64,000 nucleotides of DNA, taken from contig JAZKEB010000002.1 in assembly GCA_040387295.1 (NCBI GenBank), positions 140,802 through 204,801 on the forward strand, given 5' to 3'. Numbering within the stretch: position 1 is the first letter of the stretch; each line of letters starts with the position of its first letter. Positions 58,381-64,000 of the stretch are shown here, in pieces. The notes beneath the pieces were generated by a model. It was not told the origin of the DNA. It was given only the letters and a program-made list of their open reading frames with translations, and ran no database searches. A program made the translations under genes and the position numbers. The DNA comes from Bacteroidota bacterium. GTDB lineage: Bacteria > Bacteroidota > Bacteroidia > Flavobacteriales_D > Crocinitomicaceae.

Positions 58381-59040
58381 ATGAAAAACAGCTTATTGAT
58401 TGTTACATTGGCACTTGCCGGATCATGTTTTACGCAAACAAACCAAAACCGCGTTGGAATTACGATCGGAGGTGGTTCGCAAAAATACAGTGGTGATCTT
58501 GGAAACGGGTTCACACTGAAAAATGAGGTTTGGCGCGGCGGCGTTGCTTTAAATATCAATGTCTACCTCAACCCATCCTTTGACATCAGCGGCTATGGAT
58601 CCATCGGTGATTTCGGTTACTGTCAGCCAGATGATAAGAAAAACATGGTAGTCGCCGAAGGAGACAGGTGCGATGCCTGCCTGGACCGGCTTGGATTGGG
58701 AAATCTAAGTTCGCGGATGTACGTCAGCGGTGTGCAGCTTCGCTACAAATTCAACAACGGTTATCTTCTCCGCGAAGAACTACGCATCAAACCCTATGTT
58801 TATATGGGAGTTGCCGTGAATAAACTCACTGATCGCATGAAAATGAACTGTGTGGATGCAGGAAATTACCTCACCATCAATTCAGGTATCGGTGTTCGCT
58901 ATTATGTAAATGAGCGGCTAAATATCGGCTATAATCTGAATGTCGGTTATTTCACCTCTGATAAACTGGACTTTCTTTCCCGCGGGGCCAGTGACATGTA
59001 CCTGCAGAATACGGTATTTTTAGGAGTGGATTTGTTTTAG
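58381..59040 (+). CDS. Outer-membrane beta-barrel protein
   Basis: Signal peptide, GGSQKYSGDLG, GIGVRYY and terminal LGVDLF. Confidence 0.75.
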   Translation: MKNSLLIVTLALAGSCFTQTNQNRVGITIGGGSQKYSGDLGNGFTLKNEVWRGGVALNINVYLNPSFDISGYGSIGDFGYCQPDDKKNMVVAEGDRCDACLDRLGLGNLSSRMYVSGVQLRYKFNNGYLLREELRIKPYVYMGVAVNKLTDRMKMNCVDAGNYLTINSGIGVRYYVNERLNIGYNLNVGYFTSDKLDFLSRGASDMYLQNTVFLGVDLF

Positions 59041-59053
59041 GGGAAACAGGATC

Positions 59054-59743
59054 ATGAAGAATGTACCACGTATCACCACGCTGTTTTTAGCAACATTGTT
59101 GTTGTTTCTGGTAAGTAGTTCGTGTAACGATAAAAACAAAAAAACGTATTGTGAGGAAAACCCAAGCGGATGCCAATCTGTGCTCGCTTCTAAAGAATTT
59201 TTTGTATTTAAAGTTGGCTCCTGGTGGGTGTATGAAGAGGAAACCACTCATGAACGCGATTCAATGTATGTAACTGAATCATATAATAATAGCAATGGTT
59301 ATGATTTTTTGGTAAAAATTAAAAGCTCATTAACGGATTACGAATACCACTATTGGCCGATTTATGCTGGCGGTAATGATAATTGTAGTGAATCAAGTCC
59401 TGTTAGAGGAAAGTGTATTTATATCAAACGGTCAAAAGGAAAACCCGGGGAATTTGTTGGTGAGGACTACTGCTTTTTTGTGAATTTCAAAGTCAATGAT
59501 GGAATATTTATTTCCAATGTTAATTTCCCTAACAACACCTTAATGGTACAAGACATTTTATCCGATTATACTTTAGGTAGCTTGAGTTTCACACAATCAG
59601 TTAAAATGTTTGAAGATCATACATTCATTGAATCAAACAATCCCACTAACCATTATTTTGCAAGGAATGTCGGTCTTGTGAGGAAAGAGCTTCTAGACAG
59701 TAATCAGGTTTGGAACCTGGTTGATTATTACATAGCCCCTTGA
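59054..59743 (+). CDS. Lipoprotein paralogue 1 of the tandem array
   Basis: Lipobox VSSS-C; FKxGSWWVYEEETTHERDSMYV; RKELLDSNQVWNLVDYYIAP. Confidence 0.85.
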   Translation: MKNVPRITTLFLATLLLFLVSSSCNDKNKKTYCEENPSGCQSVLASKEFFVFKVGSWWVYEEETTHERDSMYVTESYNNSNGYDFLVKIKSSLTDYEYHYWPIYAGGNDNCSESSPVRGKCIYIKRSKGKPGEFVGEDYCFFVNFKVNDGIFISNVNFPNNTLMVQDILSDYTLGSLSFTQSVKMFEDHTFIESNNPTNHYFARNVGLVRKELLDSNQVWNLVDYYIAP

Positions 59744-59955
59744 TTTAATATAAACATCTGGTTGAAGCCAAAAACGGTAGAAAATAACTGAATAAACTTT
59801 AGAACAACATAAATAGATTACGTCCTGCTAACTTAATTTTGTACCATGATTTCCAACCAAAGCAAACAACCGGTATCAGTGAAGAGAGACGAAGTATCAT
59901 CTAAATTCACGGTTAGTTGCCCTAAAAACACTAACTTTAATTCAAATTCACGATC
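59744..59955 (+). repeat. Inter-cassette repeat 1, containing a -7 promoter
   Basis: 212 bp, nearly identical to 60646-60857 and 61542-61745; TAATTTTG at 59834-59841. Confidence 0.9.
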
Positions 59956-59959
59956 ATGA
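59846..59959 (+). CDS. Putative leaderless 37-aa uORF
   Basis: MISNQSKQPVSVKRDEVSSKFTVSCPKNTNFNSNSRS; its stop overlaps the lipoprotein ATG (ATGA). Confidence 0.3.
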   Translation: MISNQSKQPVSVKRDEVSSKFTVSCPKNTNFNSNSRS

Positions 59960-60645
59960 AGCATACAGCACATATCACCACGCTGTTTTTAGCAACACTA
60001 TTGTTGTTTCTCGCGAGTAGTTCATGTAAGGATAAAAACAAAAAAACCTTTTGCGAACAAAATCCCGGGAGCTGTCAATCTGTGCTTGTAGCAAAAGAGT
60101 TTTTCCTTTTCAAAGAAGGCTCATGGTGGGTGTATGAAGAAGAAACGACTCATGAGCGCGATTCGATGTATGTATCCGAGTCAATGAATGATTCTAACAG
60201 TTATGATTTCGACGTAAAAATATACAGCCAACTTCAGGATTTTAATTATCATTATTCACCATTATACATTAATAGCACTGCCTGTAGTAGTACTTCACCG
60301 GTAAGTCAAAAGTGTATTTACATTAAACGCTCAAAGTCTAAACCCGGAGAATATATCGGAGAAGATCATTGCTTTTTTGTGAACTACACTAAAGGTAGTT
60401 TTGAGACTGTCACAGGGAATATTTTCTTCCCCAATAATAAAATATCAGTAGAAGATATTTATGATTCTTATCAGCTGGGTAATTTGAATTTTGGAAAGAC
60501 CGTAAAAATTCATGAATTGAGTACCTTGATTGAAGGTATCCAACCCACGAACCATTATTTTGCAAGGAATGTCGGTCTTGTGAGGAAAGAGCTTCTAGAC
60601 AGTAATCAGGTTTGGAACCTGGTTGATTATTACATAGCCCCTTGA
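59956..60645 (+). CDS. Lipoprotein paralogue 2
   Basis: Lipobox ASSS-C; same conserved blocks as paralogue 1. Confidence 0.85.
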   Translation: MKHTAHITTLFLATLLLFLASSSCKDKNKKTFCEQNPGSCQSVLVAKEFFLFKEGSWWVYEEETTHERDSMYVSESMNDSNSYDFDVKIYSQLQDFNYHYSPLYINSTACSSTSPVSQKCIYIKRSKSKPGEYIGEDHCFFVNYTKGSFETVTGNIFFPNNKISVEDIYDSYQLGNLNFGKTVKIHELSTLIEGIQPTNHYFARNVGLVRKELLDSNQVWNLVDYYIAP

Positions 60646-60857
60646 TTTAATATAAACATCTGGTTGAAGCCAAAAACGGTAGAAAATAATCGAAACAAAA
60701 TCAGAACAACATAAATAGATTACGTTCTGCAACCATAATTTTGTACTATGATTTCCAACCAAAGCAAACAACCGGCATCAGTGAAGAGAGAAGAAGTATC
60801 ATCTAAATCAACGGTTGGTTGCCCTAAAAGCACTAACTTTAATTCAAATTCACGGTC
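60646..60857 (+). repeat. Inter-cassette repeat 2
   Basis: 212 bp; TAATTTTG at 60736-60743. Confidence 0.9.
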
Positions 60858-60861
60858 ATGA
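60748..60861 (+). CDS. Putative leaderless 37-aa uORF
   Basis: MISNQSKQPASVKREEVSSKSTVGCPKSTNFNSNSRS; ATGA overlap. Confidence 0.3.
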   Translation: MISNQSKQPASVKREEVSSKSTVGCPKSTNFNSNSRS

Positions 60862-61541
60862 AGTACATTCCACGTATGACCAACCTCTTTGTTCTGACAC
60901 TCGTAGTGCTCCTGATCAGTGTTTCCTGTAAAGACAAAGCCCCTAAGCCTGGAGGGCCATGCACTACTTGTCAATCGGTATCAGCAGCCAAAGATTTTTT
61001 CTATTTCAAAATGGGGTCTTGGTGGGTATATGAAGAAGAAACAAGTCATGAACGCGATTCGATGTATGTGATAGAAGCAAATGACGATGTAAATGGTTAT
61101 GATTTTGATATAAGAATTAAATCAGCATTAACTGACTATGAGTATCATTATTGGCCGATTTACTTTAGCGGGATTAGTGGTTGTAGTGAAGTTACACCGA
61201 TATCTAAAAAATGTCTTTTTGTGAAAGAATCCAAAGGTAACCCTGGAGATTTCATTGGTGAAAGTAATTGTTTTTTTATTCGTCACAGGAAAGGCGAATT
61301 TGTTAGCGCTTTCAATGTGAATTTCCCGGATAATAAGGTTTATATTGATGATATACTAGATACTTTCCAATTGAATAGTTTTTCATTTCCTAGTACTATT
61401 AAAACACATGAGTTAGCAAAAATCCAGGATAATAATCAACCAACAAACTACTATTATGCTAAAGGAGTTGGTATAGTTCGTAAAGAATTCTTAGACAGTA
61501 ATCAGGTTTGGAATCTGGTTGATTATTACATAGTCCCTTAA
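60858..61541 (+). CDS. Lipoprotein paralogue 3
   Basis: Lipobox ISVS-C; CTTCQSV; same conserved blocks. Confidence 0.85.
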   Translation: MKYIPRMTNLFVLTLVVLLISVSCKDKAPKPGGPCTTCQSVSAAKDFFYFKMGSWWVYEEETSHERDSMYVIEANDDVNGYDFDIRIKSALTDYEYHYWPIYFSGISGCSEVTPISKKCLFVKESKGNPGDFIGESNCFFIRHRKGEFVSAFNVNFPDNKVYIDDILDTFQLNSFSFPSTIKTHELAKIQDNNQPTNYYYAKGVGIVRKEFLDSNQVWNLVDYYIVP

Positions 61542-61745
61542 TTTCGAAATTGAACTCAAAAAAACAGTAGAAAATAATCGAATAACCTTTAGAACAACAT
61601 AAATAGATTACGTTCTGCAACCTTAATTTTGTACTATGATTTCCAACCAAAGCAAACAACCGGCATCAGTGAAGAGAGAAGAACTGTCATCTAAATCAAC
61701 GGTTAGTTGCCCTAAAAGCACTAACTTTAATTCAAATTCAGGATC
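61542..61745 (+). repeat. Inter-cassette repeat 3
   Basis: 204 bp; TAATTTTG at 61624-61631. Confidence 0.9.
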
Positions 61746-61749
61746 ATGA
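61636..61749 (+). CDS. Putative leaderless 37-aa uORF
   Basis: MISNQSKQPASVKREELSSKSTVSCPKSTNFNSNSGS; ATGA overlap. Confidence 0.3.
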   Translation: MISNQSKQPASVKREELSSKSTVSCPKSTNFNSNSGS

Positions 61750-62435
61750 AGAACATTCCACATATTCCCAACCTCTTTGTTCTGGCATTTATGGTGCTCC
61801 TGATCAGTGTTTCCTGTAAAGACAAAGATCCTAAGCCAGGAGGTCCATGCACTACTTGTCAATCAGTAACAGAAGCCAAGGATTATTTCTACTTCAAGAT
61901 GGGATCGTTTTGGGTATACGAGGAAGAAACCACGCATGAACGCGATTCAATGTATGTGACCGCATCGGCCAATGACATTGATAGTTATAATTTCGATGTC
62001 AGTATCAAATCTGCGCTAACAGACTACGAATACCATTATTGGCCCGTTTACAATCAGGTGAGTAATAGCTGTAGCCCGACGGCCCCTGTCGCCAAACGTT
62101 GTCTCTATGTCATGCGTGGCAAGGGTAAGTTTCAGGACAATCTGGGCGAAAGCAGTGTATTCTTCATCCGCTACCGAATCGGTGAGCAGATGAATACAGG
62201 CAGCGACATGACCTATTGCCCCAATAATAAAATCACTTTAGGCGCGATCCTCGACAGCCTTGTACTGCCGGATTACACCTTCCAAAAAACGATACGCATT
62301 GATGAGGATTGCTCTTTTCAAGAAGGAAAGCAACCTACCCGGTTTTATTATACCCAAGGTGTAGGCATTGTACGTAAGGAGTTAATCGACAGCAACCAGG
62401 TCTGGAACTTGGTCGATTATTACATAGCTCCTTAA
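61746..62435 (+). CDS. Lipoprotein paralogue 4
   Basis: Lipobox ISVS-C; more GC-rich; close to paralogue 5. Confidence 0.85.
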   Translation: MKNIPHIPNLFVLAFMVLLISVSCKDKDPKPGGPCTTCQSVTEAKDYFYFKMGSFWVYEEETTHERDSMYVTASANDIDSYNFDVSIKSALTDYEYHYWPVYNQVSNSCSPTAPVAKRCLYVMRGKGKFQDNLGESSVFFIRYRIGEQMNTGSDMTYCPNNKITLGAILDSLVLPDYTFQKTIRIDEDCSFQEGKQPTRFYYTQGVGIVRKELIDSNQVWNLVDYYIAP

Positions 62436-62445
62436 ATTCAGGAAC

Positions 62446-63135
62446 ATGAAGAACATTCCACATCTAACTAACCTCTGTATTCTGGCACTTATAGTGCTTT
62501 TGATCAGTGTTTCCTGTAAAGACAAAGACCCTAAACCAGGCGGCGAATGCACCACCTGCCAGTCGGTCATGGAAGCCAAGGATTATTTCTGCTTCAAGAT
62601 GGGATCGTTTTGGGTTTACGAGGAAGAAACCACGCATGAACGTGATTCAATGTATGTGATCCTGTCCAACAACGATCCTGATTCTTACGGTTTTGAATGC
62701 CAAATAAAAAGTTCATTGACGGAGTACGAATACCGCTACTGGCCCGTTTACAACCAGATGGTCAGCGGCTGTAACCTGACGTTGCCCGTCGGCAAACGCT
62801 GCCTGTACGTCTTGCGTGGCAAGGGCAAGTTTCAGGACAACCTGGGTGAAAGTGAGGTGTTCTTCGTGCGCTACAAGGTTGGCGACTCTGATTATACCGG
62901 TGGTGATATGTTCTACTGCCCCAACAACAAAATAACTTTTGGCGCTATTCTGGACAGCCTTGTCTTACCCAATTATACCTTCCAAAAGACGATACGCATA
63001 GACGAGGATTGCTGTTTTCAGGAAGGGAAACAACCTACCAAATTCTATTATACCGAAGGTATCGGCATCGTGCGCAAGGAACTTATAGACAGCAATCAAG
63101 TCTGGAACCTCGTCAATTACAACATCGTACCCTGA
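62446..63135 (+). CDS. Lipoprotein paralogue 5
   Basis: Only 10 bp after paralogue 4; shares QDNLGES and YCPNNKIT.GAILDSLVLP with it. Confidence 0.85.
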   Translation: MKNIPHLTNLCILALIVLLISVSCKDKDPKPGGECTTCQSVMEAKDYFCFKMGSFWVYEEETTHERDSMYVILSNNDPDSYGFECQIKSSLTEYEYRYWPVYNQMVSGCNLTLPVGKRCLYVLRGKGKFQDNLGESEVFFVRYKVGDSDYTGGDMFYCPNNKITFGAILDSLVLPNYTFQKTIRIDEDCCFQEGKQPTKFYYTEGIGIVRKELIDSNQVWNLVNYNIVP

Positions 63136-63217
63136 TATACCACACTCCTCACCCTGACAAGATCGGCAGCGGACGAACGCGTCCTGTAATCATGTAATCT
63201 TTAAATTCTAAATAACC

Positions 63218-64000
63218 ATGAAACACTTGTTTCTTTCGGTAAGCATCGTGCTTGCCGCCGGGTGGTCTTTTGCCCAAACCGACCCCCTCAACCTTCAAAA
63301 ATACTGGAAGCTCCGGGACAATTTCCGGGAACAGTTCGTGAAGATCGGGCCGGGCGACGGCGAGAGCATCACGGCCCGCGCGCTGAAACCGTTGGAGTGC
63401 GTCGACAACTATACTGCCGACGGCACCTCCGAAAACCACACCCCGCACGGCAACGGATCGCACGGCGAAATGCACTTCGGCGACGCGATGATCCGGCACG
63501 GGTATTATCTCGGCCTGCTGGCGACCGAATACCGTTTGCTGAAAGACGCTGGGCAGGACGTGACCGGGGTCAAAAACGAGCTTTTCTATGCGCTCAACGC
63601 CATTAACCGACTGGACTTCATCGCGGAAGAGAAACAAGGGCTTACCTATTTCACGGATTTCGACCCGTCGTTGAACGGATTCTATATGCGTGAGGACATT
63701 CCCGAGGATTTCGCCGAGGATAACTGGGGCAGCAGCAAGTTCGAGTCGCGTTGCGTGAACTCGCCGCATTACAAAACCAACAATGCAGCCCATTCCAACG
63801 AAGGCGGCCCGCATGATTTTCAGGCACACGGCAATAGCTACCAAAATTCCCCGAGCAGTGATCAGTTTTCATCCCTGATGCTCGGCTTCAGCCTCATTCA
63901 TAAACTAGTAGACCCCACAGAGTTCGTTCAACCACCGGGCAGCGAGTTCGGATTCTATCTTGTCGGCGAAACGCAAAATATAGTCCACCGCATGATGACC
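63218..64000 (+). CDS. Secreted protein of unknown function; 3' end runs off the window
   Basis: Absent from the ORF track because it has no stop in the window. Manual translation gives MKHLFLSVSIVLAAGWSFA-QTDPLNLQKYWKLR...FGDAMIRHGYYLGLLATEYRLL...NELFYALNAINRLD...NGFYMREDIP...SSDQF, open to 64000. Confidence 0.8.
   Translation, partial: MKHLFLSVSIVLAAGWSFAQTDPLNLQKYWKLRDNFREQFVKIGPGDGESITARALKPLECVDNYTADGTSENHTPHGNGSHGEMHFGDAMIRHGYYLGLLATEYRLLKDAGQDVTGVKNELFYALNAINRLDFIAEEKQGLTYFTDFDPSLNGFYMREDIPEDFAEDNWGSSKFESRCVNSPHYKTNNAAHSNEGGPHDFQAHGNSYQNSPSSDQFSSLMLGFSLIHKLVDPTEFVQPPGSEFGFYLVGETQNIVHRMMT

Follow-up and report, generated by a model that had tools for sequence, protein, structure and literature searches.

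Near its end, the window (the whole 64,000-nt stretch of DNA analysed here; G000:C2:140802-204801) carries on the forward strand five paralogous lipoprotein genes (59054-63135; products of 227-229 aa, family S1) and, directly after them, the 5' end of a gene for a large T9SS cargo protein (63218-64000, residues 1-261 of 1,468). Copies 1 (59054-59743) and 2 (59956-60645) belong to subtype a of the lipoprotein family, copy 3 (60858-61541) lies between the subtypes, and copies 4 (61746-62435) and 5 (62446-63135) are of subtype b and 80% identical to each other, with the proximal copy 5 presumed to be the cognate partner of the cargo. The 82 nt separating copy 5 from the cargo gene (63136-63217) hold neither a terminator-like site nor a TAnnTTTG box (the Bacteroidota -7 box), and the two genes are likely co-transcribed. 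The cargo frame is open to the window end and was read to its full length from the same contig (L002:520-4926, window-equivalent 63218-67624; L002 positions equal window positions minus 62698). A gene for an outer-membrane beta-barrel (58381-59040, forward strand; PF13505) lies 13 nt before copy 1 and has a sub-threshold match to the T9SS protein PorG (41 bits against a cut-off of 130); as no equivalent gene recurs at other loci, it was ruled out as part of the system. Just downstream of the cargo gene there is a convergent 260-aa ORF with no Pfam or NCBIfam match (L002:4989-5771, reverse strand), and about 5 kb past the window end a second T9SS cargo gene (L002:9434-11605, reverse strand) encodes a 723-aa protein that combines choice-of-anchor D and four HYR-type domains with a type A C-terminal sorting domain (CTD).

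The cargo begins with a predicted Sec-type signal peptide (63218-63274, residues 1-19; MKHLFLSVSIVLAAGWSFA, followed by QTD), which reads as MKH, a hydrophobic core and SFA ahead of the predicted cleavage before Q20. A Gln directly after signal cleavage is the usual rule in Bacteroidota, and Q20 is invariant among 30 aligned homologues. Both the clean signal peptide and the at least 260 open codons that an earlier note had reported from this DNA are thereby borne out. Behind the signal peptide the protein divides into a head of type H2 (residues ~20-565, the first half of which lies in the window at 63275-64000), a Cys-containing linker (~566-690), a beta-helix region (~690-1130), a domain that looks helical from its sequence (~1150-1385) and the CTD (1390-1468). 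The beta-helix signals are weak but recurrent (Pfam Beta_helix in one member, PDB matches to gp5-type beta-helices). The T9SS is known chiefly for the export of digestive enzymes, adhesins and virulence proteases. The CTD is a T9SS type A sorting domain, scoring above both curated cut-offs (PF18962, 39.1 bits against 27; TIGR04183, 34.4 bits against 23), and is matched in 30 of 30 aligned homologues; the protein ends in ...AQLVVQ, not in K-L-I-K-K. The same genome encodes SprA in a 2,441-aa ORF (SprA_N, PF14349, 519 bits; 0 of 14 control genomes match). The earlier note, which saw the gene truncated by the window end, had named its product a candidate T9SS effector whose CTD could not be seen, and the rest of the gene supplies that domain.

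Some 35 full-length homologues of ~1,450 aa were found (best E 1e-228), some of them in Crocinitomicaceae, Fluviicola and Flavobacteriales MAGs; all carry the CTD and none is named. Judged by these homologues and by the 1,288 clusters that share its N-terminal domain, the frame is a real gene. An antisense ORF (63149-63844, reverse strand, 231 aa) lies within the GC-rich 5' part of the gene; nothing supports it as a gene, and base composition most likely accounts for it. GC3 of the cargo gene is 0.70-0.79 over codons 1-300, 0.53-0.66 over codons 301-700 and 0.28-0.50 further on; that of the lipoprotein genes is 0.59 in copy 5, 0.50 in copy 4 and 0.29-0.36 in copies 1-3, the gradient at synonymous sites spanning 61746-64000 of the window and L002:520-2600. 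GC3 is low all along the 81%-identical orthologue at metagenomic locus L008 (0.26-0.46), and the rise is therefore private to this genome. The rise may stem from biased conversion acting locally or from a patch recently acquired from a donor richer in GC; transfer from an L008-like donor was ruled out, as the L008 gene itself has low GC3.

The best-conserved stretch of the 30-homologue alignment is the N-terminal ~300 residues. The five motif-like blocks singled out in the earlier note (given here as KYW..R, GD....GYYLGLLATEY, EL.YAL.A..RLD, NGF..R.D.P and S.DQ) all sit on columns that are invariant or at least 90% conserved in that alignment (K28, Y29, W30, K31 and R33; G88, D89, G95, Y97, L101, E104 and Y105; E121, R131 and D133; N153, G154, R158 and D160; S213, D215 and Q216). 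An exhaustive HMMER search with residues 1-660 returned 1,288 cluster representatives (767 at E <= 1e-10), with the head domain N-terminal in every match and head-bearing proteins falling into three sizes: ~440-460 aa (the domain alone, without a CTD), ~680-880 aa and ~1,350-1,900 aa (with a CTD). Aligning the stand-alone forms delimits the head as an autonomous unit of ~545 aa and reveals in the query a ~110-aa insertion that they lack (residues ~320-430, L002:1477-1809); no other part of the head evolves as fast as this insertion (8-33% identity). Most motif residues are kept in distant stand-alone relatives at 24-30% identity, where Y29, R33, D89, R131, D133, D160, S213 and D215 are invariant as well. 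The charged residues D89, E104, E121, R131, D133, E137, R158, D160, D215 and D543 are retained down to the same level of identity and are also kept in ~440-aa secreted forms that have neither stalk nor CTD.

Searches with phmmer and hmmsearch against Pfam, NCBIfam and PDB returned only the CTD and the weak beta-helix signals, with no sequence match in these libraries for residues 1-1389. The head had no match as a single sequence, as a 30-sequence profile or, at E <= 10, as a diverse 15-sequence profile, and none to a peptidase family (Pfam, NCBIfam). Its AF2 model, which stops at residue 660, is confident and mainly helical (pLDDT 85.1, pTM 0.89). The top of the Foldseek PDB list consisted almost entirely of (alpha/alpha)6-barrel glycosidases and epimerases, none of them significant (best E 0.036, TM 0.2-0.36; the neighbours include GH9 3h7l, 5dgq and 6gdt, GH8 1v5c, GH146, GH105 and GH88), and a Foldseek search of the viral library BFVD gave nothing for the head. 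Like the (alpha/alpha)6 hydrolases, the head is rich in helix pairs and has many conserved acidic and aromatic residues; unlike them, it has no sequence or profile match to any GH family, and catalytic residues cannot be mapped. For the alpha/alpha-barrel fold put forward in the earlier note, the helical model and the enzymes heading the list give a hint, at scores short of significance. The pattern of conserved acidic and aromatic residues is the ground on which the head is argued to be an enzyme, and the invariant Asp, Glu, Arg, Tyr and Trp suggest a putative hydrolase or lyase whose substrate would probably be a glycan.

The S1 lipoproteins form a family of >160 clusters with no Pfam or PDB match, in which the lipobox Cys and four further Cys are invariant. 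Their structure model is confidently all-beta (pLDDT 89.8) and weakly resembles the half-barrels of YmcC, RseB and LolA (E 5e-4, TM about 0.4); the fold search matched no known immunity protein or inhibitor. The consensus after the lipidated Cys, K-D-K-K/N-P-K, is net positive. In Bacteroidota the surface-export signal is K-(D/E)2 and net negative, KD by itself being very weak (PMC5080379). As a sequence-level prediction, the S1 consensus does not match this signal, and because it is net positive and fails the signal, S1 is predicted to face the periplasm. The lipoproteins would then be placed on the periplasmic face of the outer membrane, probably on the side where T9SS cargo fold before export. 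Between the query and L008 the lipoprotein is 68-70% identical and the enzyme 81%; by this comparison the lipoprotein evolves faster than the putative enzyme. Locus L008 has the head subtype of the query and only a subtype b lipoprotein, and locus L007, with a divergent head, has subtype a in the proximal and subtype b in the distal position. Across the three loci, this pattern is the one that a cognate proximal copy, with the remaining copies as spares against other heads, would produce.

To establish how widely head and lipoprotein occur together, both were searched in the same 401 genomes of the order. Full-length orthologues of the cargo have S1 directly upstream on the same strand, in one to three copies, in every genome except one truncated case (G189, three copies; G210 and G201, two each; also G237, G365 and G357). 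Relatives of ~1,500-1,800 aa in another family of the order are likewise paired (G047, G388, G127, G010, G113, G302 and G123), G107 and G398 were added to the paired set by hhalign and profile search, and the metagenomic loci L005, L007 and L008 have the same arrangement, the number of upstream copies being five in the query genome, two at L007 and one at L008. The distance between lipoprotein and cargo gene is 11-92 nt at 18 of the 21 loci with an H2 head. S1 was found in 25 of the 401 genomes and in 0 of about 395 sampled from the remaining phylum, and is confined to this order. The earlier note had staked its reading of an effector with immunity proteins partly on a secretion signal at the C terminus and on lipoproteins recurring beside homologues; the CTD is present, and homologues usually follow directly on co-oriented lipoprotein genes of the same family (S1 at 18 of 21 H2 loci).

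Other loci speak against a strict dependence of toxin on immunity. The genomes G095 (99% complete) and G342 (90%) encode H2-head scaffold proteins and, by profile search, have no S1 anywhere. Their heads retain every conserved residue, which rules out that lipoprotein-less loci carry dead heads. No S1 lies within 10 kb of the locus of a 55%-identical homologue (P0003), none was found in same-genus genomes with ~800-aa head proteins, and most head-bearing proteins of ~440 and ~800 aa have no S1 nearby. Protection is therefore not universally required. The three S1-less H2 loci form one clade, in which the head insertion is shorter (60-71 aa, against 92-130 aa elsewhere); this is a hint, from a single clade and one evolutionary event, that the insertion at residues ~320-430 is a candidate contact region for the lipoprotein. 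S1 also occurs in genomes without a full-length cargo match (G375, G182 and G057), and in G010 pairs of S1 genes at two further loci (C131 and C72) do not adjoin a detected cargo gene and may be orphan lipoprotein arrays. At locus L014 (G281:C14:130000-137000) a secreted ORF of 378 aa overlaps by 4 nt the gene behind it, which encodes a CTD protein of ~800 aa whose head is related. This arrangement is seen in same-genus genomes without the 1,468-aa protein, and the 378-aa ORF, which belongs to another unnamed family, may encode a different partner of the head protein.

To relate head and lipoprotein types, 59 loci bearing the scaffold (beta-helix, helical domain and CTD) were collected with their upstream flanks, and heads and upstream small ORFs were clustered. 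Only two head types occur on the scaffold: H2, the type in the window, at 21 loci, and H1 at 38. The H1 head has a nucleophile-elbow (GxSxG) motif, GQSMGG or GYSMGG, and borderline matches to DUF676, PGAP1 and Abhydrolase. S1 is directly upstream at 18 of 21 H2 loci and at 0 of 38 H1 loci (Fisher p 2e-11, uncorrected for phylogeny). The lipobox families at H1 loci are different ones, namely S2, with as many as 8 copies per array, and S3/S6, and all of these are absent from H2 loci; across scaffold loci the array copy number ranges from 1 to 8. The mature domains of S1 and of S2/S3 are unrelated, hhalign aligning only 47-58 N-terminal columns (signal peptide and lipobox), and a single superfamily of all these small lipoproteins was ruled out for the mature domains on that ground. 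Among the sister loci, where another family of small lipoproteins stands in tandem arrays ahead of the same scaffold with the GxSxG, alpha/beta-hydrolase-like head, L011 (G189:C22) has two copies, L012 (G108:C1) four, L015 (G397:C1) one, with one more copy downstream, and L022 (G351:C7:153000-162900) eight.

On a maximum-likelihood tree of the scaffold the head must change 5 times, and well-supported branches make at least 4 of these changes unavoidable. In this tree L033 (H1) and L039 (H2) are sisters, and L011 (H1) falls inside the H2 clade of the query; L039 and L033 come from one genome, G010 (C220 and C75), which thus has both head types on sister scaffolds. The four phylogenetically independent contrasts all agree with the S1 pattern (4/4; sign test p 0.125, four pairs being too few to reach significance). 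A first Mantel test on contig-matched pairs, using the best-matching copy, gave r 0.30-0.45 for every region and singled out no domain; it was replaced by a test aware of gene order. Where gene order is known, the closer two H2 loci are in their heads, the closer they are in their proximal lipoproteins (Pearson 0.86; partial correlation 0.73 given the scaffold); scaffold identity shows no such relation (partial 0.21, Spearman 0.02). Head-coding DNA adjoins the lipoprotein genes, and part of this correlation could reflect physical linkage. Taken over these comparisons, the lipoprotein family follows the head, not the scaffold. The query protein is itself a mosaic, its nearest homologues differing between the helical domain and CTD (65-69% and 82-87% identity) on the one hand and the head (63-64%) on the other, and L007 is about 91-93% identical to the query at the start of the beta-helix and 33-72% in the head. 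With at least 4 changes between two types and these identity profiles, heads are, on the sequence record, exchanged on a conserved scaffold. Across genera the heads are 40-64% identical, not hypervariable between strains.

The gene layout has an experimental precedent. In Tannerella forsythia, six KLIKK peptidases are T9SS cargo, each encoded directly downstream of the co-transcribed ORF of a small beta-barrel outer-membrane lipoprotein, a potempin, which is a specific inhibitor of that peptidase and shields the surface of the producer. The fold of the potempin varies with the catalytic class of the KLIKK peptidase (Ksiazek et al. 2022; PMC9890683). The locus in the window shares with that system a CTD-bearing cargo preceded immediately, on the same strand, by the ORF of a small beta-rich lipoprotein, and the pairing of different heads with different lipoprotein families. 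It differs in that the head falls outside the peptidases and outside every named family, that S1 (229 aa, against 98-132 aa in potempins) is unrelated in sequence and stands in tandem arrays of 1-5 copies, that S1 lacks a surface-export signal whereas potempins are surface-exposed, that 82 nt separate the two genes where KLIKK/potempin pairs have 5 nt or less, and that the system spans an order where KLIKK/potempin is confined to one species. The earlier note had called the proposed effector-immunity system undescribed; this holds for the family, of which the searched literature contains no description (nor any experimentally shown T9SS effector-immunity pair), and not for the layout, which is of a known kind (PMC9890683). 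To that kind the locus adds two families not described before, arrays of several copies and a common carrier on which heads are swapped.

Two other kinds of system bear comparison. The polymorphic toxins, as far as they are characterised in Zhang et al. 2012 (cited in PMC12419801), resemble the present family in a common scaffold with exchangeable end domains, in module recombination and in adjacent small genes that co-vary with the variable domain; they differ in that here the variable domain occupies the N terminus, since the C terminus has to be left to the CTD, that the small genes lie upstream and not downstream, and that there are two head types only, conserved across genera and not strain-variable. 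The rule for polymorphic toxins that an intact toxin never occurs without its immunity gene is broken here by the intact heads without S1 in G095 and G342. The locus also invites comparison with type VI secretion, for which no genes were seen at it. Tle lipase effectors of the T6SS, reportedly described by Russell and colleagues in 2013, are said to be paired with Tli lipoprotein immunity proteins, and the likeness lies in an envelope-directed enzyme, putative here, encoded next to one or several diverged periplasmic lipoprotein genes and, for the sister head H1, in the GxSxG motif and the borderline DUF676 and PGAP1 matches. The window system differs from these in its delivery signal, a T9SS CTD, and in a head that is helical and not an alpha/beta hydrolase.

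Because KLIKK/potempin has the same gene layout, we take the cargo to be a secreted enzyme and the lipoproteins its cognate guards, acting as inhibitors or immunity proteins, a reading to which we assign a probability of about one half. The co-variation at the family level and the correlation between head and proximal copy would agree, indirectly, with a specific inhibition of the head. The cargo would be exported to the periplasm by its Sec signal, fold there and be passed, folded, through the T9SS by way of its type A CTD. Its working part would be the ~545-residue helical head, presumably catalytic, mounted on the beta-helix and helical scaffold. The upstream 229-aa lipoproteins would be the specific partners of this head, binding and presumably blocking it, and would protect the producer's envelope from the folded enzyme, either before export, in the periplasm, or once it is released; the diverged further copies would serve against related heads from neighbouring strains.

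A special case of this reading, with a defined target, is that the cargo is an interbacterial weapon, released or displayed by the T9SS to damage the envelope of competitors, with the lipoproteins as immunities and the diverged copies as orphan immunities. We entertain it tentatively, at well under even odds. The layout resembles that of polymorphic toxins, with two heads on one scaffold, at least 4 swaps and mosaic genes, and T9SS is among the delivery routes predicted computationally for such toxins (PMC12419801; 10.64898/2026.09.22.753552). Arrays of 1 to 8 copies, a distribution of subtypes a and b that fits one cognate copy among orphans, and S1 in the three genomes without a full-length cargo match also suit a weapon, as does the hydrolase-like GxSxG motif of the sister head, reminiscent of lipase effectors with lipoprotein immunity. 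Against this, we know of no route by which a T9SS cargo of ~150 kDa could enter the periplasm of a target cell, intact heads occur without any S1, and the heads keep 40-64% identity across genera instead of being hypervariable between strains.

It is rather unlikely, in our estimation, that the lipoproteins are not protective at all and serve as substrate-binding, anchoring or chaperone partners of a polysaccharide-degrading enzyme for nutrient acquisition, in the manner of the surface glycan-binding lipoproteins beside Bacteroidota glycanases. An alpha/alpha-toroid-like head with a beta-helix is a typical polysaccharidase combination, the lipoprotein model recalls ligand-binding half-barrels of the LolA/RseB/YmcC kind, the pairing is dispensable in some genomes, and a substrate-specific helper would give head-specific pairing just as well as a guard. 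However, no SusC/SusD or other polysaccharide-utilisation genes flank any examined locus, a surface glycan-binding role is made unlikely by the failure of the post-Cys sequence to match the published surface-export signal, and fast divergence together with tandem arrays of up to 5-8 copies suits guards better than helpers. Least probable is a non-enzymatic head on a surface adhesin or structural fibre (a beta-helix stalk with a binding head), the lipoproteins being unrelated neighbours or outer-membrane docking sites: large beta-helix proteins with a CTD are often adhesins and the head has no catalytic family match, but its invariant charged residues persist to 24-30% identity, including in ~440-aa forms without stalk or CTD, and the alternative head H1 has a nucleophile-elbow GxSxG motif.

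With the secreted enzyme and its guard lipoproteins as the preferred reading, the locus has a bearing beyond this genome. To our knowledge, only KLIKK/potempin in T. forsythia has so far shown T9SS cargo paired with dedicated lipoprotein inhibitors, and the locus suggests that the same logic is much broader, reaching an order of environmental bacteria, non-protease heads, arrays of guards and recombinational swapping of heads. The head (residues 20-565) and lipoprotein copy 5 bear on two questions, whether T9SS cargo call for self-protection in the periplasm and whether the T9SS serves in bacterial antagonism. A bolder and, as we see it, doubtful proposition is that Flavobacteriales possess an undescribed family of T9SS-delivered, head-swappable effectors, in which a common carrier bears a new helical hydrolase-like or a lipase-like head, each neutralised by its own periplasmic lipoprotein family, with tandem arrays that hold orphan immunities against the heads of neighbours. 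If this were true, such effectors would constitute a contact- or diffusion-based antibacterial weapon of the T9SS.
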